This document shows, one piece after another, positions 17,891 to 54,533 of a stretch of 64,000 nucleotides of DNA (position 1 is its first letter; each line of letters begins with the position of its first letter). A program made the position numbers and the translations under genes. The stretch lies in sequence record PZ445451.1; one strand, 5' to 3'. The notes beneath the pieces are model-generated. The model was not told the origin of the DNA. It did no database searches and saw only the letters and a list, made by a program, of their open reading frames with translations. Source of the DNA: a phage.

Positions 17891-18101
17891 TATTTTGAAA
17901 ATTTTTATTTTTATAAAAAGGGGTGTGGGTTTCATGTACGGAAATTCACCCTCTGCACAGTATATCCAGAGTAAGTAGTATTCTACACCCTGTTAATAAA
18001 GTATTTAATTTGTTTGTTGGACTATGGTATCTGATCTTTAAAAGGCATACTATCTCTTAACTACTACTTATAACAAAACAGTAAAATCATTTTTATAAAA
18101 A

Positions 18102-18307
18102 GGACAAAATTATTTAAAGTTTTTACAGATTTTTGGATACAAATTTTGAAAATGAAAAGTTCAAGTTTGGTCAAAATTATTTAAAGTTTTTGTACGTATT
18201 TCTATCCAGATTTTGAAAATGAAAACTTCAATTTTTTAAAAATTCCCCAGTTTATTTAAAGTTTTTTTGCCTTTTTCCGTAGAAAAATCAAAAATGAAAA
18301 GTTCAAT
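18102..18307. repeat. Three tandem ~65-70 bp direct repeats (TATTTAAAGTTTTT ... TTTTGAAAATGAAAAGTTCAA)
   Basis: Seen directly: copies start near 18109, 18176 and 18249, in a convergent intergenic region. Confidence 0.7.
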
Positions 18308-18330
18308 TTCGTGTTTTTATAGGTGTGCGT

Positions 18331-18442
18331 ATGATAATCATTCTCATTTGTAAATGAGAATCATTATCATTTAATTATGTAAGTGATAATCATTCTCAGT
18401 AAGAGAATGAGAATCATTAGCAAATGAGAATTTTTCTCATTT
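18331..18442. promoter_or_regulatory. Array of 5 alternately oriented Fur-box-like palindromic motifs (TGATAATCATTCTCATT / AATGAGAATCATTATC)
   Basis: Seen directly; motif shares GATAATCATT core with the Fur box consensus GATAATGATAATCATTATC. Confidence 0.55.
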
Positions 18443-18703
18443 AGAGAATAACGCGCAGGGGCGGTGTTTGTCTCGCGCTCCCGTGTCCCCTCGCCATACA
18501 ATAAGAATAGCATAACCAACAACAAAAGCAAGCGATTATTTTTATCTTTACATTTCTTTACAAATTTATTTTAGACGAGCTACCGGCGATCAACCTTCCA
18601 ACCAGTGCCCCCTGGTATGTTAGCCCCGCCTTTACGCCGTGGGGGTGGCGTTTCCTCTTCTGTATGTAAAACAGTATAAGCCCGATCCCTGGGCTTGTCA
18701 AGA

Positions 18704-19330: not shown

Positions 19331-19339
19331 AAAATATTC

Positions 19340-19397
19340 TTGACAACGTTTTTTAATCTGATAAGATGTATCACATAGGGCGGCAATAGTGCCGCTC
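19340..19397 (+). promoter_or_regulatory. sigma70-like promoter (TTGACA/TAAGAT) plus conserved 5' leader hairpin (GGGCGGCAATAGTGCCGCTC)
   Basis: Seen directly upstream of gene 19420. Confidence 0.6.
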
Positions 19398-19419
19398 ATA
19401 ACAGAAGAGAGAAATAATC

Positions 19420-19692
19420 ATGGCATCATATAGCGCATCAATGATCGTAACGGGCATGACTGGTAAACCTATGCGCGGTGGCGGATCTTTCGCTAACATC
19501 AATATTGATGGGCGTTTATCCCTGGATGCAGCGATCACCGTGGCACGGGAAACATTTAAAAAAGAATGTAATTTCAATAAACAAGATTATCTCGGCTTCG
19601 TTATTGAAAAAACAGCGCGCTTTGTTGATTATAAAAGCCCGAAAATGATCGACACTACACTAAAAGCGCAAGATGTAGCATTTTTGCTTTAA
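19420..19692 (+). CDS. Hypothetical protein (90 aa)
   Basis: Track ORF preceded by promoter-hairpin-SD (AGAAGAGAG) unit. Confidence 0.55.
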   Translation: MASYSASMIVTGMTGKPMRGGGSFANINIDGRLSLDAAITVARETFKKECNFNKQDYLGFVIEKTARFVDYKSPKMIDTTLKAQDVAFLL

Positions 19693-19695
19693 GGC

Positions 19696-19755
19696 TTGAC
19701 ACTGAAAAATAATTTAGTAATATATACCACATAGGGCGGGAAATGGTTTCCCGCC
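19696..19755 (+). promoter_or_regulatory. sigma70-like promoter (TTGACA/TAATAT) plus conserved leader hairpin (GGGCGGGAAATGGTTTCCCGCC)
   Basis: Seen directly upstream of gene 19778. Confidence 0.6.
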
Positions 19756-19777
19756 AAATCAAAGAAAGGGTAACACA

Positions 19778-20140
19778 ATGAGCAAGCAAATCAATACTAT
19801 CATGTTAAACCTGGTATCTTTCCGCGATGACGTGAAAAATCTTTCGCGTGATGCAGTGGATGCACGGATCGAAAGCTATCGCACACAGATCGCAACATTA
19901 CCGTTAAAACGTGATCAACATGCCGCTAATATGATGCTTGGTGCTATGATTAAAAAGATGATTCAGTGTGATCTTACCCTGGCTTATGAATATGCTGGCG
20001 ATCTCTTTGTAACGTATAATAAGCCCGTTCCAGGTATGAGCACCACGGAAGAATTGCATGCCTTAAATTTGCGACAAGATGCATGGGATAACATGCGCCG
20101 TGTTATGGTATGGGCCGAAAGCGGTAAAATTTACGAATAA
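19778..20140 (+). CDS. Hypothetical protein (120 aa)
   Basis: Track ORF after promoter-hairpin unit. Confidence 0.55.
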   Translation: MSKQINTIMLNLVSFRDDVKNLSRDAVDARIESYRTQIATLPLKRDQHAANMMLGAMIKKMIQCDLTLAYEYAGDLFVTYNKPVPGMSTTEELHALNLRQDAWDNMRRVMVWAESGKIYE

Positions 20141-20146
20141 AAACGG

Positions 20147-20200
20147 TTGACATTGCACTAAAACCTGATAAGCTATCTTAAAGCGGGAATTGTTCCCGCT
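20147..20200 (+). promoter_or_regulatory. sigma70-like promoter (TTGACA) plus leader hairpin variant (AGCGGGAATTGTTCCCGCT)
   Basis: Seen directly upstream of small gene 20219. Confidence 0.55.
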
Positions 20201-20218
20201 TACATAGGATAAAACTTT

Positions 20219-20365
20219 ATGAAACAATATGTAATGAGTATCCACACCAAAAACGGCGCTACTGTTACGACTCCGGCACGGTTTGCACTTGTAAACCGTT
20301 GCAAGAGACTAAAACGAGAGTTAAAAAATAACCGTGCAACGGGCTTTAAACGCTGGGGAGGATAA
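20219..20365 (+). CDS. Small basic protein (48 aa, MKQYVMSIHTKNGATVTTPARFALVNRCKRLKRE..)
   Basis: Manual ORF below size cut-off; follows promoter-hairpin unit; stop 2 nt before next start. Confidence 0.4.
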   Translation: MKQYVMSIHTKNGATVTTPARFALVNRCKRLKRELKNNRATGFKRWGG

Positions 20366-20367
20366 TC

Positions 20368-20628
20368 TTGTTTTTTCTAAAAGTTTGTGATAATGTGATC
20401 GCTTTTGAACATGCTACAACGTTCGACCTGGCGAGATACGCTATCAGGTTTAAAGATAATGTTTATCCCCGTGCTGGCGGCGGTTACACTATTTTTAATC
20501 ACCGTAACGCTCAATTAACGGATATAACTAATCCAGATCCTGGAGTGTATCGGATAGGCTGGCTACCGTCAAAAGACGCTGCAAGCATGTTTAAGGTGTG
20601 TAAACTACTAACAGAAGAGGCGAACTAA
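20368..20628 (+). CDS. Hypothetical protein (86 aa), probable TTG start
   Basis: Track ORF; start codon TTG preceded by GGGGAGGA SD. Confidence 0.45.
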   Translation: MFFLKVCDNVIAFEHATTFDLARYAIRFKDNVYPRAGGGYTIFNHRNAQLTDITNPDPGVYRIGWLPSKDAASMFKVCKLLTEEAN

Positions 20629-20629
20629 C

Positions 20630-21184
20630 ATGGGGCGTGAATATGTGATCCAGTCCTGGGTAAAGCATGATGCTAATGATCCGCGCATAATACCAGATGA
20701 CATGATCGATCACATGGTAGGGTATAGCGGGGAGCAGATAGGAAATCGAGCGGCAAAGAGCAACGGCAACACCAGGACGCGATCCGTTCGTCCTGGATGG
20801 CTGGCGAATGGTAACGCTGACATTGCAAGCGCCGCAGATCCAAGCGATGACGCTAAAAATAATCCCTTGTACAGCATTGATCCGGCTTTTAAGGTGTTGG
20901 AAGAGTATCCCGCTAAATTAGCCGCACTAGATAAGGCATACGAAGAAAAGCGCATGGCCTGGACTGTATACAACACCGCTAAAATGGTGCTAGATGCAAA
21001 ACTAATTAAAGCCCAGGAGAAGATCAATAAACTTGTTACCATAGCGCAAGAGGAAGACCAGGGCGACCAGGAGGAAGAGGAAGAAATCATGCCTACCCTG
21101 GAAGAGGAAGAGATCCAGCCATACATGCCGACAGAAGAGGAAAAAAGACAAGCCCTAAAAAATTATGAAAATTGCATTGTGTAA
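20630..21184 (+). CDS. Hypothetical protein (184 aa) with acidic C-terminal tail
   Basis: Track ORF; C-terminus EEDQGDQEEEEEIMPTLEEEE. Confidence 0.55.
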   Translation: MGREYVIQSWVKHDANDPRIIPDDMIDHMVGYSGEQIGNRAAKSNGNTRTRSVRPGWLANGNADIASAADPSDDAKNNPLYSIDPAFKVLEEYPAKLAALDKAYEEKRMAWTVYNTAKMVLDAKLIKAQEKINKLVTIAQEEDQGDQEEEEEIMPTLEEEEIQPYMPTEEEKRQALKNYENCIV

Positions 21185-21187
21185 GGC

Positions 21188-21244
21188 TTGACATATGCAA
21201 ACAAGCCCCGTAATATGTACCACATAAAGCGGGGCAACGCCCCA
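21188..21244 (+). promoter_or_regulatory. sigma70-like promoter (TTGACA-N17-TAATAT) plus leader hairpin variant (GCGGGGCAACGCCCC)
   Basis: Seen directly. Confidence 0.55.
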
Positions 21245-21265
21245 TAAGGTGAAATAAAAAATCAC

Positions 21266-21293
21266 TTGACACCTGAAATCAGTAAGCTATAAT
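21266..21293 (+). promoter_or_regulatory. Near-consensus sigma70 promoter (TTGACA-N16-TATAAT), second of a tandem pair
   Basis: Seen directly, about 40 nt upstream of gene 21331. Confidence 0.6.
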
Positions 21294-21330
21294 GCTTATA
21301 TAGATTGAAACATTACTAAGGAATAAAAGC

Positions 21331-21510
21331 ATGGCTATTATTGCAAAGACTGAGATCGTAGGTTTAGATTCTATCATCCTGGCATATGAGGAAGCTATAG
21401 AAATGTATGTGGTTTCCTATGGTGATTATATCCGTGAATATAAATCTATTGATCTAGCTTTTGAATGCTATATTCGCCAGGTCAATAAAGCATATGATGA
21501 TTATCGTTAA
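21331..21510 (+). CDS. Small hypothetical protein (59 aa)
   Basis: Manual ORF just below size cut-off (MAIIAKTEIVGLDSIILAYEE..), downstream of tandem promoters. Confidence 0.45.
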   Translation: MAIIAKTEIVGLDSIILAYEEAIEMYVVSYGDYIREYKSIDLAFECYIRQVNKAYDDYR

Positions 21511-21529
21511 AAGTTTTAGTCTTGTGCTA

Positions 21530-21558
21530 TTGACAACGAACGATAGTACAAGCATAAT
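21530..21558 (+). promoter_or_regulatory. sigma70-like promoter (TTGACA-N17-CATAAT)
   Basis: Seen directly upstream of gene 21606; no leader hairpin in this copy. Confidence 0.5.
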
Positions 21559-21605
21559 AACTTTTATCGGGAATACTCCTAACTAATCAAAAGAGATTAA
21601 AGACT

Positions 21606-21971
21606 ATGGCTAAAAATATCAATGTTTCTGCTTATGCTACCCTGGCTAACACTGCTAAAATTGAACTATCCAGCATTGAAGCGGTACATATTAGCGCCCG
21701 TCGCTGGTTTCAAAAGTCTTATGGTAATACTTATTTCTCTTTGATGGTTGACGTTGAGATCGGCGGTAAACTGATCGAAGTAGTTAACGTTCCGTTTCAA
21801 TATGGTTATGGGGATCATTTTGATACCGTTGCCCTAGAAGAGTTTAGCAAGGTTATCAACCTGGAAGGTAAAGAGTTTTCAAATTATGCTTACCTTTCCC
21901 GCTTTTGCCGTGATAATGGGATCGCTGTATACAGTCATGCAAGCGATGTAAAACGTAAAAAAGATTTATAA
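21606..21971 (+). CDS. Hypothetical protein (121 aa)
   Basis: Track ORF. Confidence 0.55.
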   Translation: MAKNINVSAYATLANTAKIELSSIEAVHISARRWFQKSYGNTYFSLMVDVEIGGKLIEVVNVPFQYGYGDHFDTVALEEFSKVINLEGKEFSNYAYLSRFCRDNGIAVYSHASDVKRKKDL

Positions 21972-21977
21972 AAAGCA

Positions 21978-22036
21978 TTGACAGCACGAATAAAAAGCAT
22001 ATAATACTTATATCGAGAGCGGGAATAGTTCCCGCC
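21978..22036 (+). promoter_or_regulatory. sigma70-like promoter (TTGACA/TATAAT) plus leader hairpin (GCGGGAATAGTTCCCGC)
   Basis: Seen directly upstream of gene 22060. Confidence 0.6.
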
Positions 22037-22059
22037 TCACTGAAAAAGAGATTAACATC

Positions 22060-22299
22060 ATGGCTAAATCTAAAATGTACAACGGTCACAAAAATAAAAC
22101 TCATTGGAATGTAAGCCTTTGGATTAATAATGATGAATCGTTATACTTATACGCTGTAGGTTTAATAAATGAGTGCGGCAATAAAGATAAAGCGGCGGAT
22201 CTGATGTGCTACAGATTAAAACAGGATGGAATCACTCATACACCTGATGGTTTCAAGTATAGTAAAACTGCAATCCGTGCCGCTATGGTAGGAATGTAA
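22060..22299 (+). CDS. Hypothetical protein (79 aa)
   Basis: Track ORF after promoter-hairpin unit. Confidence 0.55.
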   Translation: MAKSKMYNGHKNKTHWNVSLWINNDESLYLYAVGLINECGNKDKAADLMCYRLKQDGITHTPDGFKYSKTAIRAAMVGM

Positions 22300-22308
22300 T
22301 AAAAGCAG

Positions 22309-22368
22309 TTGACAACGTTTTTTAATCTGGTATAGTTTATCGCATAGGGCGGGAAATGGTTTCCCGCC
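22309..22368 (+). promoter_or_regulatory. sigma70-like promoter (TTGACA/TATAGT) plus conserved leader hairpin (GGGCGGGAAATGGTTTCCCGCC)
   Basis: Seen directly; identical hairpin to 19734 copy. Confidence 0.6.
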
Positions 22369-22390
22369 AAATCAAAGAAAGGTTATCATT

Positions 22391-22618
22391 ATGGCTATCG
22401 TTATTGTTCGCGTATCCGGCACGGTTGGAATCTCCCAGGTAGTAGCAGTTATCACCGAGAAGAAAGGGGATGATCTTCACTCCTCATTGAATAGCTGGGC
22501 GGTCGCTAACTTTGGGCAATGGTCGAGCGTTGAGTACATCGAATCCTACCAGGTGCCAACGATTAGCCTGACCGATCTCAACGTTGATCGTCTGTTATGC
22601 CTGGATCAATTAAACTAA
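22391..22618 (+). CDS. Hypothetical protein (75 aa)
   Basis: Track ORF after promoter-hairpin unit. Confidence 0.55.
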   Translation: MAIVIVRVSGTVGISQVVAVITEKKGDDLHSSLNSWAVANFGQWSSVEYIESYQVPTISLTDLNVDRLLCLDQLN

Positions 22619-22626
22619 AAATAATA

Positions 22627-22684
22627 TTGACAAGACAACTAAAATTAGTAAAATGTAATTCATAGGGCGGCAATAGTGCCGCCC
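22627..22684 (+). promoter_or_regulatory. sigma70-like promoter (TTGACA/TAAAAT) plus leader hairpin (GGGCGGCAATAGTGCCGCCC)
   Basis: Seen directly; perfect 8-bp stem. Confidence 0.6.
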
Positions 22685-22705
22685 CTAGTAAGAGAGATTA
22701 TCAAA

Positions 22706-22921
22706 ATGGCTAATATCCGCACCTTGTTAAAAAATGCAAAGCAAGTTTTATTTTCAGATGACGAGTATTTCAACAAAGACATTACAGGCGTGAAAAATTT
22801 AAAAGACGTGAAGGATGTTATCGGTATCCGTGGATCTTTACGTAAAGGTGACATATACGGTAACAAGGTGCAATATAAACTGTCAAAAGATTATGATTTT
22901 ACTTTGACAATTATTTCATAA
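22706..22921 (+). CDS. Hypothetical protein (71 aa)
   Basis: Track ORF; start moved to MANIRT (ATG 22706) because the track start lies inside the leader hairpin. Confidence 0.55.
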   Translation: MANIRTLLKNAKQVLFSDDEYFNKDITGVKNLKDVKDVIGIRGSLRKGDIYGNKVQYKLSKDYDFTLTIIS

Positions 22922-22927
22922 AACTAC

Positions 22928-22988
22928 TTGTAAACCTGGTAAAATAAAGTAAACTATATTCATCAAGGCGGTGGAATAGCCCACCGCC
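22928..22988 (+). promoter_or_regulatory. Weak promoter-like sequence plus leader hairpin variant (GGCGGTGGAATAGCCCACCGCC)
   Basis: Seen directly; stem arms co-vary relative to other copies. Confidence 0.5.
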
Positions 22989-23012
22989 TAACAAAGAGAA
23001 GAGGAAAACATC

Positions 23013-23183
23013 ATGATCACTTTCACTACCCGTGAAGCCGCTCGCAACGTTGCACGTAAAGTTAACGCCGCCAACCTGGGCGCTACGCTTAAAGCCCCGG
23101 TGAAAGATGAATCAGGAAAATGGATCTTTCCTGGTCTGCGTCACGCTGATAAGCTGGGAACATTAACGTTAAAAAATAAATAA
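23013..23183 (+). CDS. Small hypothetical protein (56 aa, MITFTTREAARNVARKVNAANLGATLKAP..)
   Basis: Manual ORF below size cut-off; AGAGAAGAGG SD after hairpin. Confidence 0.45.
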   Translation: MITFTTREAARNVARKVNAANLGATLKAPVKDESGKWIFPGLRHADKLGTLTLKNK

Positions 23184-23190
23184 TATCCGC

Positions 23191-23249
23191 TTGACAGTAG
23201 CATCGTTTATAAGTAAAGTAACAACAACGGCGGGAAATGGTTTCCCGCC
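23191..23249 (+). promoter_or_regulatory. sigma70-like promoter (TTGACA/TAAAGT) plus leader hairpin (GGCGGGAAATGGTTTCCCGCC)
   Basis: Seen directly upstream of gene 23270. Confidence 0.6.
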
Positions 23250-23269
23250 ATCAATAAAGAGATAAGATT

Positions 23270-23629
23270 ATGAAATCAGTAAAAGCAATTAAAACTTACA
23301 TTGTGTCGGCTATTTCTTTTGATGGTACTACAACCGAAAAAGAAAAAATCACCGAACTGATGCGCCGTTTTAACTCTGAATACTGGTATCAATCTAATCG
23401 TGATCGTTATAATAACAATATGGTACAAGCTGTTAAAAGCTGGTTACAAGGTTTACCGTCAGATATCAATATCGCTTTTAATTATAACGAGATCGATCAA
23501 TTATTAATTGAATGGAAGTACATAAAAGAAACAAGCAAAGAAACAACCGTTACCCGTGAGCGGGAAAATTATTGGTTATATATTGCAAGCATGATCGTAA
23601 CTTTGGCAAAATATCATAACGTAGCGTAA
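23270..23629 (+). CDS. Hypothetical protein (119 aa)
   Basis: Track ORF after promoter-hairpin unit. Confidence 0.55.
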   Translation: MKSVKAIKTYIVSAISFDGTTTEKEKITELMRRFNSEYWYQSNRDRYNNNMVQAVKSWLQGLPSDINIAFNYNEIDQLLIEWKYIKETSKETTVTRERENYWLYIASMIVTLAKYHNVA

Positions 23630-23643
23630 TCGAGAGGAAAAAC

Positions 23644-23781
23644 ATGAACGCATCACAGCAGATCGAAAAATTCAACCGCAACAAAGCGAGTAAAGATTGG
23701 AACGAAGAGATCACCAAGAAAGGCGACAAGCGGAACAAAACAAAAAGAGATCGCAGCAGCAAAAGATACTGGAACGAATAA
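23644..23781 (+). CDS. Small basic protein (45 aa)
   Basis: Manual ORF; GAGAGGAAAAAC-ATG SD; followed directly by terminator. Confidence 0.4.
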   Translation: MNASQQIEKFNRNKASKDWNEEITKKGDKRNKTKRDRSSKRYWNE

Positions 23782-23782
23782 C

Positions 23783-23809
23783 AAAAAAGGGCGCAATAAG
23801 CGCCCTTTT
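23783..23809 (+). terminator. Rho-independent terminator (GGGCGC-AATAA-GCGCCC-TTTT)
   Basis: Seen directly. Confidence 0.65.
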
Positions 23810-23899
23810 AGCTTATATAGAGGCTTGTTGCTTATAGGCAAGGGTAACGCCAGGATAAGCCTATAAACCACGTTAGACGGCTTTACAGGAGCTTTAAAA

Positions 23900-24082
23900 A
23901 TGAAATTAGAGGAAATAAGCAAGGCACTAGCCCAGGGGCAAAGGTTATGCGCCCGATATCGTGATCAATATGGCTTCATAACTAGCGGCGTGATCCTGGG
24001 GATGGAAGGCAATAAGATTTTTATTGACACGTTGAAAAACGTTGTATATAGTGACAATATAATCTCAATAAAACATATATGA
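23900..24082 (+). CDS. Hypothetical protein (60 aa)
   Basis: Track ORF; GGAG SD. Confidence 0.45.
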   Translation: MKLEEISKALAQGQRLCARYRDQYGFITSGVILGMEGNKIFIDTLKNVVYSDNIISIKHI

Positions 24083-24090
24083 GGCAAGAA

Positions 24091-24492
24091 ATGAAAAAAT
24101 TATTGATCGCTGGTTTACTCTCTTTTGGCATGGTTGGAACATCTAGCGCGGCGATATCCTCCACAGTAGCAGAATTAAGCGCCGTTGATGCAATGGAAAA
24201 CGTCATGATCATTAATAATGCGATCCCCGATGAAATCATGGAGGATTCACACATGATCGCTTATGGTGCTGTTACACAACTAACGGCAAAAATAGATAAA
24301 TCTATTGTTAATGGCTTAAATGAAGATGTACCATGTGAAATTATTACCAGTGTGCTCACTACTCAAAATTTTACGCCGTGGCTAAAAAGTATTCAAAAAG
24401 TACACAGTACAGCCGCAGATCGTAGCAATGAAAAACTAGTGTCAGCACTTGCAACGTATACCCTAGCAAAATGCACCGAAATAAAAGATTGA
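24091..24492 (+). CDS. Putative secreted protein (133 aa)
   Basis: Track ORF; start moved to MKKLLIAGLLSFGMVGTSSA (signal-peptide-like) with GAGG SD. Confidence 0.55.
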   Translation: MKKLLIAGLLSFGMVGTSSAAISSTVAELSAVDAMENVMIINNAIPDEIMEDSHMIAYGAVTQLTAKIDKSIVNGLNEDVPCEIITSVLTTQNFTPWLKSIQKVHSTAADRSNEKLVSALATYTLAKCTEIKD

Positions 24493-24517
24493 CAACATAG
24501 AAAGCACGTTATAAGAT
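24489..24517 (+). promoter_or_regulatory. sigma70-like promoter (TTGACA-N17-TAAGAT)
   Basis: Seen directly; -35 overlaps stop of upstream gene. Confidence 0.5.
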
Positions 24518-24539
24518 ACACACAACAAAGGAGAACTAC

Positions 24540-24842
24540 ATGAACGGCATAGCTAAAACGTTTTTTCTTTTTTCTGGTGTAAATGATCCATCAATAAAAG
24601 TCGATAGCGTAAAAGAAAACAATACTATCACCGCTAAATTGTTTCAAGATGAAACAAATAACGTGCTAATCATTAATCTTAAAGAAATAACAAAAGGTTA
24701 TTATACTATTGCTTACCATGCGATCTATAATGCTGGTACTAGTGAGGAAGTGCAAACAAGCAACAACGAAAGCGCGGCGCTACCTGGTGATCTGGTGCTG
24801 GGCGTTATCAGTTTAATTGTCAATGATTTTTTTAAGGAGTAA
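24540..24842 (+). CDS. Hypothetical protein (100 aa)
   Basis: Track ORF; AAAGGAG SD. Confidence 0.5.
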   Translation: MNGIAKTFFLFSGVNDPSIKVDSVKENNTITAKLFQDETNNVLIINLKEITKGYYTIAYHAIYNAGTSEEVQTSNNESAALPGDLVLGVISLIVNDFFKE

Positions 24843-25100
24843 AACCATGCCCTATTTACATTTATTTTTCGGTATCTTATTGACAGGATCTTTTTTCTTC
24901 TGTATGCTTGTTTCTATTGTAAACCACGTTTTAAAACATTAAGGAAACAGCATGAAAATTATTCCCGTACAGTATAGCGTAATAAATCCAGCATATGAGG
25001 AAGGAAGGAAAACAAGCATGGCTTTATGTTGTATTGCTACTATAGCCATGTTATTATACACTGTGTTTTAATAGGTTTTATAGTTGTACGCTTTAAAGGC

Positions 25101-25153
25101 TTGACAATTTTTTGTTATGCTTTAAAATATATCTTGAAAACGGCAAAGGCCGC
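25101..25153 (+). promoter_or_regulatory. sigma70-like promoter (TTGACA/TAAAAT) plus short leader hairpin (CGGCAAAGGCCG)
   Basis: Seen directly upstream of gene 25172. Confidence 0.5.
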
Positions 25154-25171
25154 AAACAAAAGGGTAAAATT

Positions 25172-25495
25172 ATGAAATCTGTGATCGGTGTTTATTTGGA
25201 TAATTCTGATTTTTTCTATCATCGCGCTCGTTTCCTTGATGCTATTGATATGATAGAATCAGGCTTTAAAGAATACCGCCTTGCACATGATGACCTGGAA
25301 GCATTACAGGGCAATAGTGTTTTTACATTGCAAGCGAAAGCACTATGTAAAAGCCGGATCGACATTGCGAGCAAAAAGATAGAACGCGGCATGTCCTGGT
25401 TGCGCACCGCAGAAATCAACATGGGGCAATGGTACGGCAAAAACTTAGAAAATAAACATACCTTTGTCAATGTAGAAAATATTGAAGATTATTGA
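25172..25495 (+). CDS. Hypothetical protein (107 aa)
   Basis: Track ORF; start moved to MKSVIGVY downstream of the promoter. Confidence 0.55.
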   Translation: MKSVIGVYLDNSDFFYHRARFLDAIDMIESGFKEYRLAHDDLEALQGNSVFTLQAKALCKSRIDIASKKIERGMSWLRTAEINMGQWYGKNLENKHTFVNVENIEDY

Positions 25496-25558
25496 TTGAC
25501 AGCACATCTAACGAGTAGTATATTGTATCTCATAGAGCGGGGAAATGGTTTCCCCGCC
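25496..25558 (+). promoter_or_regulatory. sigma70-like promoter (TTGACA-N17-TATATT) plus leader hairpin (GCGGGGAAATGGTTTCCCCGC)
   Basis: Seen directly; stem lengthened by one compensated G-C pair. Confidence 0.6.
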
Positions 25559-25577
25559 TTAAAAGAAGAGATAAGCT

Positions 25578-25862
25578 ATGAAGATCACAAAAGCACTTTC
25601 CAACTATGCAGCACGTCGCGGATTATGCTTATCCGTTGAAAACTTAGGGAAAGAAGATTTTTTGTGTTTTTGGGAGCTTGAAAATGAAAGTGAATGGTTG
25701 TTCTCTTATTCTATCTGCGAAGATCAAAACGGTTGTTTGTTAACCTGGCGCGGTAATATCTATCTACCGGAAGAAATCAAAGAAGAATTGCCAGGCACGA
25801 TCATGACTGAGAAACAGCTTAAGGAAGTGATTAATTTTGTAGGGCAAAACATTAAAAAATAA
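25578..25862 (+). CDS. Hypothetical protein (94 aa)
   Basis: Track ORF after promoter-hairpin unit. Confidence 0.55.
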   Translation: MKITKALSNYAARRGLCLSVENLGKEDFLCFWELENESEWLFSYSICEDQNGCLLTWRGNIYLPEEIKEELPGTIMTEKQLKEVINFVGQNIKK

Positions 25863-25863
25863 T

Positions 25864-25922
25864 TTGACACTAGGCAAACAACGTAGTAAAGTTTATCACA
25901 TAGGGCGGCAATAGTGCCGCTC
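25864..25922 (+). promoter_or_regulatory. sigma70-like promoter (TTGACA-N17-TAAAGT) plus leader hairpin (GGGCGGCAATAGTGCCGCTC)
   Basis: Seen directly; same hairpin variant as 19379. Confidence 0.6.
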
Positions 25923-25943
25923 ATAACAGAAGAGAAACAAATC

Positions 25944-26114
25944 ATGATCCCGACTATGTTTTATGTATCGCGCAAAGGTCACAATATTTTTTGGTCTGAA
26001 GATTTAAATGAAGCCATGACGTTTGCCCGTGATCGTGTTGCTATCGGTGGCGTTAACATTACTGTAACCGATGAAAACGGCATTGAATACTATAACGGCG
26101 ACGATGAAGAGTAA
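25944..26114 (+). CDS. Hypothetical protein (56 aa)
   Basis: Track ORF; start moved to MIPTMFYV because the track start lies in the hairpin. Confidence 0.5.
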   Translation: MIPTMFYVSRKGHNIFWSEDLNEAMTFARDRVAIGGVNITVTDENGIEYYNGDDEE

Positions 26115-26121
26115 TTAATAA

Positions 26122-26142
26122 GGCGGGGGAGTATTCCCCGCC
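26122..26142 (+). promoter_or_regulatory. Leader-type hairpin (GGCGGGGGAGTATTCCCCGCC) without an upstream promoter
   Basis: Seen directly between genes 25944 and 26162. Confidence 0.5.
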
Positions 26143-26161
26143 GTCAATAAAGAGGTAAATC

Positions 26162-26431
26162 ATGAAAATATCTTTGGACGTTGCAATCAAGGCCATCGAA
26201 TCCGGTTACACCCTGGTAAAAGATGATAAGGCTAAAATAGTGCATCATGTTAACAAGGAAACAGGCGAAAGCATGATCACATATAAAGCCGCCTACTTTC
26301 TCCAATCAGTAGCAGATCCGCGCGTACAACGCCAGGTTACAGCGGCTATTGCTAAAAAATTATGTGCTTTACAGGGCACAAGTTTTAACGAGATCGCCCC
26401 GTGTTTTGACTGGTCGAGCTTGAAAAAATAG
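26162..26431 (+). CDS. Hypothetical protein (89 aa)
   Basis: Track ORF; AAAGAGG SD after hairpin. Confidence 0.55.
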   Translation: MKISLDVAIKAIESGYTLVKDDKAKIVHHVNKETGESMITYKAAYFLQSVADPRVQRQVTAAIAKKLCALQGTSFNEIAPCFDWSSLKK

Positions 26432-26432
26432 T

Positions 26433-26494
26433 TTGACAATATGCTGTTATCTGGTAAAGTGTACGACATAGGGCGAGGCAATAAGGCAACGCCC
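26433..26494 (+). promoter_or_regulatory. sigma70-like promoter (TTGACA/TAAAGT) plus divergent leader hairpin (GGGCGAGGCAATAAGGCAACGCCC)
   Basis: Seen directly. Confidence 0.5.
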
Positions 26495-26513
26495 ATTAAT
26501 GAGGGGTAGAATC

Positions 26514-26618
26514 ATGTTAGAGAAAATTTTCACGGTTGTAATAGTGGGCCTGGCGTTATCGGTTGGATTGGTTGCAACTATGGCTAACATGATCCTATCT
26601 TCCCACGGTATTGGATAA
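26514..26618 (+). CDS. Small hydrophobic peptide (34 aa, MLEKIFTVVIVGLALSVGLVATMANMILSSHGIG)
   Basis: Manual ORF; GAGGGG SD; first ORF after the promoter-hairpin unit. Confidence 0.3.
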   Translation: MLEKIFTVVIVGLALSVGLVATMANMILSSHGIG

Positions 26619-26628
26619 GGTGAATCAA

Positions 26629-26844
26629 ATGATCACGAATAAGACAGGTAAAACAGAATTTTTACGCAGCTTGCAAATAGGTAAACCTGAGATCTGGCAT
26701 TGCACTAAATCCGCGCATAATGAAATGAAAGATTTTACCGCTACTTTACAACGTGTTAAAATATCTATCACACAGAAAAAAGCCTTGTTAGTAGTAGAAA
26801 ACGAGATCCCGCAAACCATTATTATTGTCGAGCGTACAGCATGA
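26629..26844 (+). CDS. Hypothetical protein (71 aa)
   Basis: Track ORF; start moved to MITNKTGK (AAGGTGA SD). Confidence 0.5.
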   Translation: MITNKTGKTEFLRSLQIGKPEIWHCTKSAHNEMKDFTATLQRVKISITQKKALLVVENEIPQTIIIVERTA

Positions 26845-27227
26845 AAACTGAAATCATTAACGAAATGATCAACGGCTATAAAGAAGCCTTTATTTTTGCC
26901 GAACCAGCGACGGATCACAATGGGGAATATATTGAGAATCTAGACGATTATGATTTTTCTCCTAGCGCCCTGAAACGTATTACCAGCGATGTGACCGCCT
27001 TTTGTAGTGCCAATGTTGCCGCTATCTCTGAGGCAATGAGCGACGGCGCTACAGCAAACCAGATCGGGAATGATTTACATTTTACCCGTAACGGTCACGG
27101 CGTAGGTTTTTGGGATCGCCCTGAAATATACACTACTAACACCGCCAACCGTTTAACTGATGCAGCTAAATTAATGCCATTGGTGCATGCTTACATTGGT
27201 GAAGATAATTTGATTTATATTGACTAA
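26841..27227 (+). CDS. Hypothetical protein (128 aa)
   Basis: Track ORF; ATGA overlap with upstream gene. Confidence 0.55.
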   Translation: MKTEIINEMINGYKEAFIFAEPATDHNGEYIENLDDYDFSPSALKRITSDVTAFCSANVAAISEAMSDGATANQIGNDLHFTRNGHGVGFWDRPEIYTTNTANRLTDAAKLMPLVHAYIGEDNLIYID

Positions 27228-27232
27228 AAGTG

Positions 27233-27291
27233 TTGACACCGATCCCCAATATGTTATTATTTACCACGTAAGCGGGAAATGGTTTCCCGCC
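27233..27291 (+). promoter_or_regulatory. sigma70-like promoter (TTGACA/TATTAT) plus leader hairpin (GCGGGAAATGGTTTCCCGC)
   Basis: Seen directly. Confidence 0.6.
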
Positions 27292-27314
27292 AGGTAATCA
27301 AAAAGGTAAATACT

Positions 27315-27704
27315 ATGCGCAACCTGGTTTCTGTTTCTAACGTTGAAAAATTTCAATCTTTACAGGGTATCGTTAACAACGTAGCGCCTTTTTTAGTCAA
27401 CGGCTTGATTGCAAAGATGAAAAATAAACATCATGCGGCATGGTCTGCTTACTGCTTTGATAATGATGAAAAAGCGGCTGAAATGATGCTAAATATGCTG
27501 TTAGACAGTGTAGAATCATCTTTACCGGAAAACATCGCAGAAGAGATCACCTATCGTTATAATATGGCGATCACTTACCAGGAGGTTGCGCAATTTAATA
27601 TGATGGACGATGACGAACAACAGGATCAGGAAATGTTTTGGGAGTATGCTGATCGTCAATCGGCTTTTGATGAAAAATTAGCGATGTATTATAACGAATA
27701 TTAA
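27315..27704 (+). CDS. Hypothetical protein (129 aa)
   Basis: Track ORF; start moved to MRNLVSVS downstream of hairpin. Confidence 0.55.
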   Translation: MRNLVSVSNVEKFQSLQGIVNNVAPFLVNGLIAKMKNKHHAAWSAYCFDNDEKAAEMMLNMLLDSVESSLPENIAEEITYRYNMAITYQEVAQFNMMDDDEQQDQEMFWEYADRQSAFDEKLAMYYNEY

Positions 27705-27714
27705 TACACGGTAA

Positions 27715-27745
27715 AAGAAAGGGGCGCACTAAGCGCCCTTTTTTG
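27715..27745 (+). terminator. Rho-independent terminator (GGGGCGC-ACTAA-GCGCCC-TTTTTT)
   Basis: Seen directly. Confidence 0.7.
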
Positions 27746-28089
27746 TATTCTTTTTTCACGATGGAAACAACACGTAAAGAATAGGCGTAAAGGTGGCGTA
27801 AAACCATCTAAAACCGACTGTAACCGCTTAAACAAGGTAGGAATGATTAATCACCTTACCAGGGTGAAAAAGCTGTTATAAAGCTACCTAGAGCGTTTAA
27901 AGCACATAGGGAATAATTTGCTTTTTATCTTGCCTTTTATCCTGCTTTTGATTATTATTATGGAACGGGCGGCACCTGGGGACAGGGGAAGATAATCACC
28001 GGAAGATCCCGCTATATATTGATAGCTAATACCTATTAAACAACAAAACATCAAAGGAATAAACTATCAAATCTTTACAATCCTACCTA

Positions 28090-28150
28090 TTGACACAGGA
28101 TCACCCTTATACTAATATGTATCCCGTAGGGCGGGAAATGGTTTCCCGCT
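28090..28150 (+). promoter_or_regulatory. sigma70-like promoter (TTGACA-N17-TAATAT) plus leader hairpin (GGGCGGGAAATGGTTTCCCGCT)
   Basis: Seen directly. Confidence 0.6.
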
Positions 28151-28168
28151 TGATATAGGAATCATACC

Positions 28169-28402
28169 ATGATCGAACAAATTAAAAGCACTACACCAAA
28201 TGTTAACGGCAATGTTTCACACTTTATCGGTGATAATGAAAGGGGCACACCATACGCCGCCGTAACCGTGCAACCTAATGGCGATTATTGGTTTACCGTG
28301 TACGGATCATACTCTTTCGGACGCCCGGCACATGATAAGATCTTGCAAGCGGTTAAACCTGCGGGGAAGAATATCACAGCAGAAAAATTTTATAAAAAAT
28401 AG
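28169..28402 (+). CDS. Hypothetical protein (77 aa)
   Basis: Track ORF after promoter-hairpin unit. Confidence 0.55.
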   Translation: MIEQIKSTTPNVNGNVSHFIGDNERGTPYAAVTVQPNGDYWFTVYGSYSFGRPAHDKILQAVKPAGKNITAEKFYKK

Positions 28403-28403
28403 C

Positions 28404-28432
28404 TTGCTTTATTTCTTCTGTTAACTTATAGT
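28404..28432 (+). promoter_or_regulatory. sigma70-like promoter (TTGCTT-N17-TATAGT)
   Basis: Seen directly; leader hairpin degenerate here. Confidence 0.45.
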
Positions 28433-28477
28433 TATCGCGTAGGGCAAACAATTTTAAACGGTAAACGAGGAATCACC

Positions 28478-28861
28478 ATGAGCAATATCATCAACCTGGC
28501 AGCGACTGTAAACGGTAAAGATTTTAACGGCGCTGTAGACCGTGATCCTATGTGGTGCTTATCAGTGTTTAAAGGCGACCTGGTTGAAGTTAGAACAACC
28601 GAAGGCTATAGCGATGATTATAAATGCGAGATCCATTTACATAACTGGTACACGGGGAAAACTTATGCGCTGAATCACGCATTTATCGGGAAAATTGAAT
28701 ATCGCGAAATGATCGACGAAGAAACGGGGCAAGATTTTAGCGATTATGTTTATATCCGTTCAGAAACATTAGCCGAACGCTTGATCGAGAAAATGAAAGC
28801 AAAAAATAAAATTAATTTAGCTCATTGGCTTGATATAACAAATGATCCGGCTTACAAGTAA
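28478..28861 (+). CDS. Hypothetical protein (127 aa)
   Basis: Track ORF; ACGAGGAA SD. Confidence 0.55.
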   Translation: MSNIINLAATVNGKDFNGAVDRDPMWCLSVFKGDLVEVRTTEGYSDDYKCEIHLHNWYTGKTYALNHAFIGKIEYREMIDEETGQDFSDYVYIRSETLAERLIEKMKAKNKINLAHWLDITNDPAYK

Positions 28862-28876
28862 ATAACATTTCACACC

Positions 28877-28903
28877 AGGGCGCACAAAGCGCCCTTTCTT
28901 TTT
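28877..28903 (+). terminator. Rho-independent terminator (AGGGCGC-ACAAA-GCGCCCT-TTCTTTTT)
   Basis: Seen directly; ends the small-gene array. Confidence 0.7.
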
Positions 28904-29106
28904 ACCTAAATAAAGATGATAGCTTTTACCTATCAAAAACGTTCACCGAAAAAAGTGAATAGATCGCGGTATCGAGCTAATCAAGGAGCAGATGAACAAC
29001 CATACCATGAAGATCATAAGGCGCTTACAACGTGTTTTAGACCGCTTATTTTTAATTTCTCAATGTAACTATCGGGCAAAAACAGCCTTTTTCTTGTCTT
29101 TCCTCT

Positions 29107-29184
29107 TAAATGATAATCATTCTTATTTATAGCTGATTATTTATGCAATAAACTGCATAATGCAATAATGATAATCATTCTTAA
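29107..29184. promoter_or_regulatory. Two Fur-box-like sites (AAATGATAATCATTCTTA; ATAATGATAATCATTCTTA)
   Basis: Seen directly; second copy matches 16 of 18 positions of Fur consensus ATAATGATAATCATTATC. Confidence 0.55.
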
Positions 29185-29542
29185 CTTATGACCATCTAAC
29201 CTATAAAATAATAAGTTATCTAACTAAATTAAAACTAATTATCCCACCTTTATTTATAACTTACTTTTACTATCTCATTGATAACCTTATATTAAACAAC
29301 AATAACCAATATAAATCATTACTAAGCTAACTATAATCTATCTAACCCTTAAAACTATAACTATAATCTATCGAATTGTTGCACAAAGTAACTATTAAAT
29401 TGTTAGTAACTTTACTAAATAATTAATATCCTATCTATTTATGATCTAATCTTTACCTTACTATCTATTACCTAAATAACCATTTCATACAGAAATTATT
29501 TCATACAATAACTATAACAAGAAATATAATTCGCAAGCGTAT

Positions 29543-29703
29543 CATTAGCAGCCTATGCCGGACACATAGGCGGCTAATAATAACGCAACTACACACCCCA
29601 CATAATAACCATCACCGATAGTTATTATTTGTGCTTATGTAGCTTGCAACAATTGCAAGCGCAACAATATACATGGTATATTGTATCCCTTACATTGTTG
29701 CGG
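29543..29703. repeat. Cluster of nested inverted repeats (13-bp stem ATTAGCAGCCTATG/CATAGGCGGCTAAT; CTTGCAACAATTGCAAG; CGCAACAAT...ATTGTTGCG enclosing ATATAC-ATG-GTATAT)
   Basis: Seen directly in the 1.8-kb non-coding region. Confidence 0.6.
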
Positions 29704-30042
29704 TGCGTTATTATTAGCTAATGTTTGGAACATTGGCTATAATATAAGCTACATATAATAAGCTATACAATAATAAACATAATGAATAATGACACTGATG
29801 ATCATAATGCGCCACCTTCCAGGGGGCGCTATGTGAACACAAAGAAATCTTTCTTGTCAAGAAAAATATCACCATTATTGCGCAAAATTATTTATATCTG
29901 AACAGATGATTTTTCATACTATTGCCCCCTATAGTATCCCTATTTGTTGTAATGTATTCCCCTATTTGTTGAGCCTACTCTCTTAAAAGCGCAATAAATT
30001 AGAATTATCTTGATTTTTAGGTAGTTTTATAGTATAGAAAAT

Positions 30043-30066
30043 ATGCAAATGATAATCATTATCAGC
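30043..30066. promoter_or_regulatory. Fur-box-like site (GCAAATGATAATCATTATC)
   Basis: Seen directly; AATGATAATCATTATC is a 16/16 match to the 3' part of the Fur consensus. Confidence 0.6.
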
Positions 30067-30229
30067 TATCTTCCACAGGTGGCACTATTTCACGCCAGAT
30101 CATTTCATTTGGCAAGGTGTATATAGATGTTTAGAAATGCCAAGCCATTGATTTACTTAGAATTTATCTGTTTTGTTGTGAGTAGTGCCTTTCTTGCTCA
30201 GAAAATAATCAAAAGTCTTATAAGTCATT

Positions 30230-30264
30230 GAATGATAATGCAAATGATAATTATTCTCATTGAT
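30230..30264. promoter_or_regulatory. Fur-box-like site (GAATGATAATGCAAATGATAATTATTCTCATT)
   Basis: Seen directly. Confidence 0.5.
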
Positions 30265-30378
30265 ATTTGAGGGGGACGGTCGGCAGAAATCGGGGGCGCT
30301 AAAAATCGCGTTAAGCACCTCTCGCAAGCGAGCAGTATTTTGCGGCAAGTTATTGATATTATTGGCTTTACGCTTATG

Positions 30379-30485
30379 GAAAGGGGGTGTGTCGAAATAA
30401 ATCGGGTATACCGGAAAATTTTTGTGGCATAGATATTTATTTGTCTATATTATGTACAAAGGGGTGTGTTAAAAATAATAGGTAT
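30379..30485. repeat. Two copies of AAAGGGGTGTGT..AAATAA..GGTATA motif about 73 bp apart
   Basis: Seen directly; third partial copy at ~17919. Confidence 0.45.
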
Positions 30486-30717
30486 ATATAGAATAATTGA
30501 TAGGGAAATCCTATACTAATCCCTCCATTAATGATGTTCCTAGGTTGCTGTTCTTGTAACAGATGAAAAGACGCTGTATGATGTGTGGCATGAGACGTAA
30601 ATTTATAAGATGCAAATAATGCTTGCATTGAATAGAAATGTCTGTATAGTGGTTTGCATACCGCGCACGACGCGTTTCCATTTTCAATAAAATGTTAGCA
30701 TTATGGGGAGGTAGAAA

Positions 30718-31179
30718 ATGAGACAACTATCTATACTGGAAGCACATGTGCAATGTGTTGCAGATTATGTCAAAGAACACTCAAGTTTGTTGGATGTAAC
30801 CTGTGCAGTGCAAAATGATGTAGGTATTGTCTGTGTGCGACATATCTTATCTGAAACTCGTTATGAAGTATTTCGTGCCAAGTTGTTTGGATGTGATCAA
30901 GTGCATGTAAACTTCTTGGATTCCAATTTTCGTTATGCTTTAGAAAATATTGATGATTATCTTCCTTGCTCTCCGACCGGATATGTGATGATAGCAGCAA
31001 ATGAAGTAACACCAAACAACAGTGAGCGGGAAACTTTGTTACGGAAGAAAATACGCCAACTGCAAGTGTTGAATGAACTGAAAGAAGAGATTGAAAAAGA
31101 ACTGAAAGAAGATTTTGGTATGCTTCCAAAAGACGCTTTGAAATGGTTTGATGAACTAGGAGAGGAAAGTTATGAATAA
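30718..31179 (+). CDS. Hypothetical protein (153 aa); N-terminus paralogous to 36932 gene
   Basis: Track ORF; GGGGAGG SD; shares ..H.SLL.V...V....G.V.V.H.LS.T.Y.VF....... with 36932..37183. Confidence 0.55.
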   Translation: MRQLSILEAHVQCVADYVKEHSSLLDVTCAVQNDVGIVCVRHILSETRYEVFRAKLFGCDQVHVNFLDSNFRYALENIDDYLPCSPTGYVMIAANEVTPNNSERETLLRKKIRQLQVLNELKEEIEKELKEDFGMLPKDALKWFDELGEESYE

Positions 31180-48368: not shown

Positions 48369-48691
48369 CTCTCCTCAAAATCCATAAGTATAAAGATATT
48401 AACTTTACCTTCTATATTATGTTCTACAACAAGATCTGCAAATTCTTTGTAGGCTTTTTCTTCTATTTGTTCAATGTGAGACGCTACATCTTTGTATATA
48501 GCGTCACCATCTACTTTAACAAGGAGGAATAGAGATCTTACTTCAATCTCTTTATTTTTACGGGGTAGAAAATCGACGGCTTCTTGTATACGCCAGCCGA
48601 GATACCCTGGAGTCCTTTGAATATCCTCCAAATGACTTTCTAAGATTTCCCTTCCTTTGTCTATTAAAGCCTGTTCTGTCGTTATTTTCAT
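48365..48691 (-). CDS. Hypothetical protein (108 aa)
   Basis: Track ORF. Confidence 0.5.
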   Translation of the reverse strand: MKITTEQALIDKGREILESHLEDIQRTPGYLGWRIQEAVDFLPRKNKEIEVRSLFLLVKVDGDAIYKDVASHIEQIEEKAYKEFADLVVEHNIEGKVNIFILMDFEES

Positions 48692-54266: not shown

Positions 54267-54533
54267 TTACTCCGCAATCTGAGCCATGAATTCACGTAGT
54301 TCAGAAAAACCTCCTACGTGGGTTAGCTGTTCACCATCTTCCACAAAAATCTGAGGAAATGTGCGTGGTAGAACACCTGTTTTCTCTAAAACCAGATTCT
54401 GAATCTGATCTAAAGAATAGTCTTCATCTAAGGTAAGGTATTTAAAATCCTGTTCACGCTGTTCCAGTAGAATCTTAGCGTTAGTGCAGAAAGGACAATT
54501 TGGTTTACCGTAGATAATAAAATTCATTTTCAC
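54267..54533 (-). CDS. nrdC: NrdC-like thioredoxin/glutaredoxin
   Basis: Track ORF; 88 aa, IIYGKPNCPFCTNAKILL..FPQIFVEDGEQLTHVGGFSELREF parallels T4 NrdC (VYGYD..CVYCDNAKRLL..QVFAPDGSHIGGFDQLREY). Confidence 0.8.
   Translation of the reverse strand: MKMNFIIYGKPNCPFCTNAKILLEQREQDFKYLTLDEDYSLDQIQNLVLEKTGVLPRTFPQIFVEDGEQLTHVGGFSELREFMAQIAE

Follow-up and report, generated by a model that had tools for sequence, protein, structure and literature searches.

Predicted host Fur boxes in and beside the direct terminal repeat of a phi92-like Escherichia phage

Fur boxes are textbook operators of bacteria, and on temperate phages they control cargo genes, stx1 being a Fur-regulated cargo of this kind. 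The terminal repeat of phage T5 contains the injection-stop region, which carries repeats and DnaA boxes. In lambdoid coliphages, a Fur box lies 5′ of the sitABCD cargo (PMC6969025), and the Qin nohA box next to cos was shifted by Fur in gels and came out of an in vivo selection for Fur binding sites (Chen et al., 2007; PMC2189734). Overlapping sites spaced 6 bp apart allow the binding of several Fur dimers (Chen et al., 2007; PMC2189734). In this study, four Fur-box-like motifs were analyzed in a 64,000-nucleotide stretch of phage DNA (sequence record PZ445451.1; this whole stretch is called the window below), where an initial annotation had described them as near-consensus Fur boxes scattered through a 1.8-kb non-coding region. 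All four lie in the non-coding gap 28862–30717 (1856 bp), and two of them fall within the direct terminal repeat (DTR) of the genome. The four sites, with their scores on a matrix of E. coli Fur sites, are as follows.

29106..29130, plus strand: site 1, a pair of overlapping 19-mers offset by 6 bp, at 29106 (17.7 bits) and 29112 (16.2 bits), with the core TGATAATCATTCTTA
29164..29182, plus strand: site 2, AATAATGATAATCATTCTT, a single site of 21.4 bits
30045..30063, plus strand: site 3, GCAAATGATAATCATTATC, a single site of 24.8 bits, the top score in the 150-kb genome, at DTR position 74
30228..30267, plus strand: site 4, a composite of TTGAAT, a Fur array at 30234 (14.7 bits), 30240 (20.7 bits) and 30246 (16.0 bits), and then GATATT

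The matrix was symmetric, 19 bp long, and built from 16 footprinted or gel-shifted E. coli K-12 sites, with the coordinates of the bound sites taken from Tables 3 and 4 of Chen et al. (2007; PMC2189734) and the sequences from NC_000913.3. These 16 sites scored 12.0–22.4 bits, or 8.6–20.9 bits when left out one at a time, and sites 1–4 scored 17.7, 21.4, 24.8, and 20.7 bits, respectively, so that the phage sites were equal to or above the footprinted operators. Sites 3 (30045) and 4 (30230–30261) were exactly where they had been annotated, while the sequences of site 1, AAATGATAATCATTCTTA, and site 2, ATAATGATAATCATTCTTA, begin at 29108 and 29165, respectively, one base later than claimed. Against the 19-bp consensus GATAATGATAATCATTATC, site 2 matched 16 of 19 positions rather than the 16 of 18 given previously; the 16 of 16 over the 3′ part given for site 3 was correct, and its full 19-mer matched 17 of 19, including the perfect 7-1-7 box TGATAATCATTATCA. 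Overlapping sites phased by 6 bp, the mark of a Fur cluster for several dimers, were found at sites 1 and 4, the array members of the latter being 6 bp apart. The four sites belong to one family of 29-nt direct repeats, and all have the same orientation.

Matches to the Fur motif were far more frequent than expected. The consensus 19-mer with ≤3 mismatches gave 6 matches vs. 0.03 expected, and the inner 13-mer AATGATAATNATT with ≤1 mismatch gave 16 vs. 1.7. Matrix matches of ≥17 bits numbered 4 in the gap vs. 0.028 in dinucleotide shuffles, a count reached by none of 1000 shuffles. Over the whole genome, 13 matches of ≥17 bits were found vs. 0.82 ± 0.85 in dinucleotide shuffles, and 6 of ≥20 bits vs. 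0.07, with none of 60 whole-genome shuffles reaching the observed counts. The claim of far more sites than chance would give was therefore upheld by the genome-wide matrix scan against shuffled controls that had been proposed to check it. All 13 genome matches of ≥17 bits fall in the window, 10 of them in two non-coding regions, and these overlapping matches amount to about nine separate sites, as had been estimated initially. The gap is AT-rich (30–36% GC), a composition that favors chance matches; however, chance in AT-rich DNA was rejected, as none of 1000 composition-matched shuffles reached the counts and the sites are kept across genera. The second of the two non-coding regions contains a further array.

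18327..18421, plus strand: second Fur array, six matches of 17.3–22.8 bits, in the other large non-coding region

To the left of this 18.3-kb array (18100–18310) are three tandem repeats of ~62 bp (containing aaaatgaaaagttcaa), and on the right side lies a leftward promoter close to consensus (TTGACA-17-TATACT, 18701), from which transcription would run through a GC-rich stretch, possibly non-coding, into the Fur array (18327–18450). Isolated strong matrix matches were also observed at 5072, 41181, and 54513 (record 119188), all inside coding DNA; the one at 54513 (21.0 bits) overlaps the beginning of bas60_0209, a putative glutaredoxin gene.

Like the Fur operators of E. coli at cirA, fhuF, fepA-fes, ryhB, and iucA, the phage sites exhibit the core consensus, the 7-1-7 symmetry, the 6-bp phasing, and the flank variants. 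The ATGCAAATGATAAT prefix that several of them share had been taken to suggest a separate, longer phage element, but the same prefix is present in bona fide E. coli operators, namely cirA (GATAATGCAAACGATAAC), fepA (TTGCAAATGCAAATAG), fhuF (CTTGCAAATGATAAAA), and tonB (ATGCAAATAGCAATCAT, reverse strand). Therefore, the ATGCAAAT prefix represents a Fur hexamer that lies next to the box and is out of phase with it by 6 bp. The flanks were alike as well: GATAATGCAAACGATAACAATTATCA of cirA compares with GATAATGCAAATGATAATTATTCTCA of site 4, and GCAAATGATAAAAATTATCA of fhuF with site 3, and the 3′ ATTCTCATT of the phage sites also occurs in ryhB and gpmA, with ATTCTCGTT in fhuA. As in most E. coli clusters (PMC2189734), the phage sites adjoin sigma-70-like hexamers. 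Unlike the E. coli operators, they are located on a virulent phage, in the DTR or other non-coding DNA, with no iron-related or coding gene directly 3′.

These likenesses bear on the alternative that the motifs are operators of a phage-encoded DNA-binding protein, whose resemblance to Fur boxes would be a convergence on an AT-rich palindrome. Several putative DNA-binding or transcription-factor proteins of unassigned family are encoded in the left-end operon, where a Pfam search assigned no family to the six annotated as such, and the motif is restricted to the two regulatory-looking non-coding regions of the phage. However, the perfect 7-1-7 box, the 6-bp-phased neighbors, and the E. coli flank variants (GCAAAT and ATTCTCATT) exceed a generic palindrome; the substitutions found in relatives, such as GATAAT to GAGAAT, are within Fur tolerance; and the same motif occurs near the termini of the unrelated lambda and T5-like phages, which do not have these proteins. 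Further, when the whole genome was searched with E. coli Fur by tblastn, no Fur-like protein was found (best E = 3.5, with a query whose first 49 residues are identical to the K-12 gene fragment). A phage protein as the intended ligand is thus quite improbable, and the four motifs as Fur boxes of the host are well supported by their sequence.

Conservation was then compared among phages related to the one in the window, of which positions 28800–30750 match Escherichia phage PaulScherrer (Bas60, MZ501100.1; Stephanstirmvirinae, Justusliebigvirus, phi92-like) with 100% identity; coordinates throughout the 64-kb window equal those of the PaulScherrer record minus 64675, and the full genome is ~150 kb. 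The gap is flanked on the left by bas60_0144, encoding a Gp30.8-like protein and equivalent to the last gene of phi92 (gp248), and on the right by bas60_0147, the first gene of phi92 (gp001), which opens the left-end early operon. Two tiny open reading frames are annotated in the gap, and the alignment showed that their reading frames are not kept in relatives, so the initial annotation of the 1.8-kb region as non-coding was correct for 28862–30717.

Within the genus, eight Justusliebigvirus genomes were compared, and all four sites were kept in 8 of 8, including phi92 and arall. Variable columns made up 6 of 94 inside the sites vs. 200 of 1279 outside (Fisher p = 0.016). Inside the sites, GATAAT had changed to GAGAAT, AATGAT carried an A for its G, or the central base differed, all changes of a kind that Fur tolerates. 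Variation along the DTR was uneven, with 52% variable columns at 30100–30200 in its middle vs. near invariance at 30200–30300.

Between genera, the gap is only ~75% identical, in patches. Equivalents of sites 1, 3, and 4 were found in Phapecoctavirus (phAPEC8, ukendt, and ZCKP1), where site 2 has decayed, and equivalents of all four sites in the Klebsiella-phage lineage (phi1_175008). For site 1, Phapecoctavirus has TGCAATGATAACCATTATC and Klebsiella phage phi1_175008 has AATAATGATAATCAATCTC, and the 58-nt spacing between sites 1 and 2 is the same in phi1_175008, with a similarly spaced pair in an IMG/VR relative. Site 3 is represented by TTAAATAATAATCATTCTC at the same place in Phapecoctavirus and by TGAGAATCGTTATCA in phi1_175008, where it is displaced by ~25 nt, therefore indicating site turnover under selection, while the equivalent of site 4 is in place in phi1_175008. 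In more distant IMG/VR relatives, Fur-like sites lie near the homologous gene, and the DNA downstream is unalignable; a gp248-based search for related loci gave five, three of which have extra genes downstream and are unalignable across the gap. The comparison with related phages that had been proposed thus found the sites conserved within the genus, with equivalents in two further lineages, and together with the matrix scan against shuffles it sustained the Fur-box reading. Between sites 1 and 2, one more element is kept in all three lineages.

29142..29159: palindrome TATGCA-N6-TGCATA

The region is also matched by five records labeled "Campylobacter phage" (A150, A145, C3, A110a, and one more) and by "Pseudomonas phage" PsgM04F (95% and 76% identity, respectively); probably the hosts were mislabeled, or else the preparations were contaminated.

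The position of the sites relative to the genome ends was then determined. In phi92, the repeat is annotated as DTR-L (1–343) and DTR-R (148270–148612), each of 343 bp, and alignment puts both ends on the window; a 342-bp DTR was reported for phage BME3 (PMC12210895), and several related records start or stop at the boundary positions.

29972..30313: DTR, 342 bp, a single copy in the circularly assembled record, mapped from the phi92 ends
29960..29990, plus strand: left cut-site context, ending in TATTTGTTG^AGCCTACTCTCTTAAA (^, boundary), where the second CCCTATTTGTTG repeat stops exactly at the boundary
30306..30318, plus strand: right cut-site context, TCGCGTTA^AGCAC, to which the right end of phi92 maps

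Sites 3 and 4 are within the DTR and therefore present at both ends of the virion DNA, upstream of the left-end early operon, while sites 1 and 2 are ~800 bp to its left, directly past the terminator of the last gene, where the unique sequence has its right end. With two sites inside the 342-bp repeat, two just past the last gene, and all in the same direction, the description of the sites as scattered did not hold.

The DTR boundaries carry sequence elements of their own. CCCTATTTGTTG is present twice in 29938–29971, its second copy abutting the left boundary. The TGTTGAGC..TCTCTTAAA context at the left cut site is kept in the three lineages, and the 13-mer at the right cut site is identical in PaulScherrer, phAPEC8, ZCKP1, and phi1_175008. 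The left boundary context reads TGTTG^AGC..TCTCTTAAA and the right one TCGCGTTA^AGCAC; both share TT[GA]^AGC(A/C)C.TCT, kept in the three lineages, which is probably the terminase cutting context. The cut sites share a conserved context different from the Fur motif, and therefore the latter is not the terminase site; as a terminase recognition or cut site it was rejected, because the boundaries carry the other motif and the Fur motifs are 50–75 bp inside, and also 800 bp and 11.6 kb off. Chance, or a part in terminase recognition or cutting, for which the presence of two sites in the DTR speaks, was effectively refuted by the shuffles, the cross-genus conservation, and the separate cut-site motif, and is highly improbable.

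The placement in the DTR points to a different alternative, a role of Fur at the DNA ends that does not involve transcription. Fur on the DTR might be an architectural or capping host factor, either on the first-entering DNA (in entry, protection, or anchoring) or at the concatemer junction during terminase cutting, like IHF at lambda cosB. Within the DTR, the distance from the left end to the start of site 3 is 74 bp and that from the end of the site 4 composite to the right end ~50 bp, a conserved placement. However, a terminal position does not apply to sites 1 and 2, which are ~800 bp beyond the DTR, or to the array at 18.3 kb, which is 11.6 kb off; the motifs at the cut sites differ from that of Fur; and the termini are among the few long non-coding stretches, so that sites could gather there for other reasons.

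Further evidence bearing on an end role came from unrelated phages. In lambda (NC_001416, 48.5 kb), the only matches of ≥15 bits were an overlapping pair at 48447/48453 (48447–48471) of 19.2 and 17.9 bits, the next match being 12.9 bits. This pair ends 31–37 bp from the right cohesive end and shares the 15-mer TGATAATCATTATCA with site 3. A homologous box of 22.2 bits was found in the DLP12 prophage of E. coli K-12 (nohD/"nohB"), ~32 bp left of cosN (390–414 of the stretch examined). Like the phage sites in the DTR, the lambdoid cos-side box is a near-consensus Fur box within tens of bp of a terminus. However, it is a single box at the cohesive end of temperate siphoviruses, vs. two boxes in the DTR of a virulent myovirus plus further clusters in the phi92-like phages, and its flanks are not homologous to the phi92-like ones.

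An exact-match scan of IMG/VR for AATGATAATCATTATCA gave at least 120 stretches, in which locus boundaries are not contig ends, and pointed to an array in T5-like phages. In the T5-like Salmonella phage SP01 (NC_047859), a tandem array of at least six Fur boxes with a TAAAAAGCGG spacer lies at approximately positions 500–700. The array sequence is present twice (490–710 and 4865–5085 of two stretches), consistent with a terminal repeat, and its region matches 449 phage records. T5-like phages and SP01 resemble the present phage in having clusters of host-protein sites in non-coding terminal-repeat DNA near the first-entering end, with the same Fur motif in the SP01 array; they differ in that the repeat is ~10 kb, the array is tandem with the TAAAAAGCGG spacer, and there is no homology to the phi92-like repeat. 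Thus three unrelated phage groups, the lambdoid, T5-like, and phi92-like phages, have Fur boxes near their termini, which speaks for an end role. On the other side, no part in packaging or DNA entry is known for Fur, and no paper naming both "cosQ" and "ferric uptake" was found in the literature searched. Weighing these points, an architectural or capping role at the ends is unlikely, though it deserves consideration. Similarly unlikely is that Fur is a conserved host factor on phage genome ends, forming an iron checkpoint on entry, immediate-early transcription, or end processing that would be undescribed so far.

The temperate-phage cargo systems were less alike. The sitABCD and stx1 phages, like the present one, have phage DNA with a host Fur box, but each uses one box for one cargo operon expressed from the prophage, whereas here a lytic phage has multiple sites and no cargo gene.

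The number and strength of the sites raise another alternative, in which replicating genomes would titrate Fur, de-repress host iron uptake, and so supply the iron enzymes of the phage, that is, the effect of the laboratory Fur titration assay built into a phage. The about nine separate predicted high-affinity sites, several of them above natural operators (24.8 vs. ≤22.4 bits), are concentrated in DNA without an obvious target gene. The phage encodes both subunits, alpha and beta, of a class I ribonucleotide reductase as well as a class III reductase and the activase of the latter, and a single cloned prophage box (nohA) sufficed for recovery by in vivo Fur-site selection (PMC2189734). However, a sponge needs neither fixed positions, nor a single orientation, nor conserved flanking hexamers, and within a lytic cycle iron uptake might be de-repressed too late to matter. 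Titration as the purpose of the sites is therefore distinctly unlikely.

The flanking hexamers point to a role at promoters. The elements around the sites are as follows.

30010..30038, plus strand: putative weak promoter, TTGATT, 17-nt spacer, TATAGA, with TCTTGATTT invariant in the three lineages
30554..30582, plus strand: strongest sigma-70-like promoter 5′ of the first gene, TTGTAA, 17-nt spacer, TATGAT, with no Fur box
28877..28895, plus strand: intrinsic terminator, closing the right-end early gene block 5′ of sites 1 and 2, kept in relatives

From the spacing of TTGATT-17-TATAGA, transcription would be expected to start at or just before site 3; because the −10 hexamer TATAGA is poor, this promoter is a candidate only. 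At site 4, TAAGTCATTGAAT and TGATATTTG bracket the Fur array at 27–28 nt in all three lineages, and each lineage has a −35-like hexamer inside the array that is able to pair with GATATT. TTGTCT precedes site 1. The flanks of sites 3 and 4 thus resemble the usual layout of Fur-repressed promoters, with weak elements. In a simple promoter and terminator scan of the region, the terminator at 28877 was the sole terminator found.

The explanation we favor, at a little under even confidence, is that the sites are host Fur operators maintained by selection, at which Fur-Fe2+ would occlude auxiliary rightward promoters reading towards the early operon. Site quality and enrichment were observed here, as were location, orientation, and conservation; Fur occupancy, promoter activity, and its dependence on iron are inferred. 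Each site is just 3′ of, or across, a weak conserved rightward sigma-70-like element (TTGTCT; TTGATT-17-TATAGA; TTGAAT...GATATT). In an iron-replete cell, Fur-Fe2+ dimers would occupy the sites, with sites 1 and 4 serving as 6-bp-phased multi-dimer arrays, and the bound Fur would block the auxiliary promoters. In an iron-starved cell, the promoters would be free and would contribute further rightward transcription, both into the leader and early operon and over the non-coding DNA of the right end. As a side effect, each replicated genome would add about nine high-affinity sites that could soak up Fur.

Several points weigh against occlusion of auxiliary promoters. The promoter-like hexamers are weak (−10 TATAGA and GATATT), and in a simple scan promoter-like sites in the region were no commoner than in shuffled sequence. 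Promoter-like sites free of Fur boxes are closer to gp001 in the early operon. Directly 3′ of sites 1 and 2 there is no protein-coding gene, nor does one directly follow the 18.3-kb array, and therefore the classic role as the operator of a gene is not evident. The within-genus conservation signal is modest (p = 0.016), and early repression in iron-replete hosts brings no obvious gain to a virulent phage. Lastly, Fur boxes adjoin the termini of lambda and T5-like phages, which hints at an end-linked rather than a promoter role.

A generic early promoter of the phage was also considered as the identity of the motif and rejected. At 19–28 kb, ~15 early promoters consist of TTGACA-17-TAnnAT followed by a 5′ hairpin, none of them has a Fur box, and promoters of this class are absent from the gap. 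Along 19331–28477, nearly each small early gene has its own TTGACA-17-TAnnAT promoter and then a conserved 5′ hairpin (catagggcgg...ccgc).

Structured RNA was looked for around the sites. Rfam gave no match in 28862–30717 at E ≤ 1, and a scan of 17.5–31.5 kb gave nothing relevant. The fold of 30262–30420, 3′ of site 4, had z = +1.4, that is, unstructured, and therefore gives no support for a structured small RNA there. Dense hairpins were observed at 29535–29745 (RNA fold z-score −5.4), 230–440 bp left of the DTR boundary, including a perfect 15-nt long-range inverted repeat between 29573–29587 and 29704–29718; an RNA structure is one possibility for this cluster, and a DNA element (for instance, an origin or a packaging signal) is another. 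The G-rich sequence AAGGGGTGTGT was observed at 17918, 30269 (variant), 30382, and 30459, and a longer repeat that goes with it, AAGGGGGTGTGTCGAAATAAATCGG, has three copies. With ≤1 mismatch, AAGGGGTGTGT has only four plus-strand matches genome-wide, three in the two non-coding regions with Fur clusters and the fourth at 55008.

The location of the sites in the DTR and their cross-genus conservation are new. In the literature searched, no paper linking Fur with lytic-phage genomes, T5, or cosQ was found, and no description of conserved consensus-grade Fur clusters in the DTR and leader of a family of strictly virulent phages; neither fur nor iron is mentioned in a recent RB-TnSeq preprint covering a Justusliebigvirus.

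The likeness to the termini of lambda and T5-like phages offers a hypothesis for two long-unexplained facts, the Fur site of nohA next to cos and the non-coding arrays in terminal repeats. If the end role were true, the first-entering DNA or the concatemer junction would be read by the iron sensor of the host. Fur sites in the DTR suggest that events at the phage genome ends are tied to host iron status. If Fur binds, the behavior of phi92, phAPEC8, and their kin, therapeutically popular phages of broad host range, would not be the same in niches poor in iron (the gut, urine, and blood, for example) as in iron-rich laboratory broth, with a bearing on the efficacy of phage therapy and on how phages sense host physiology.

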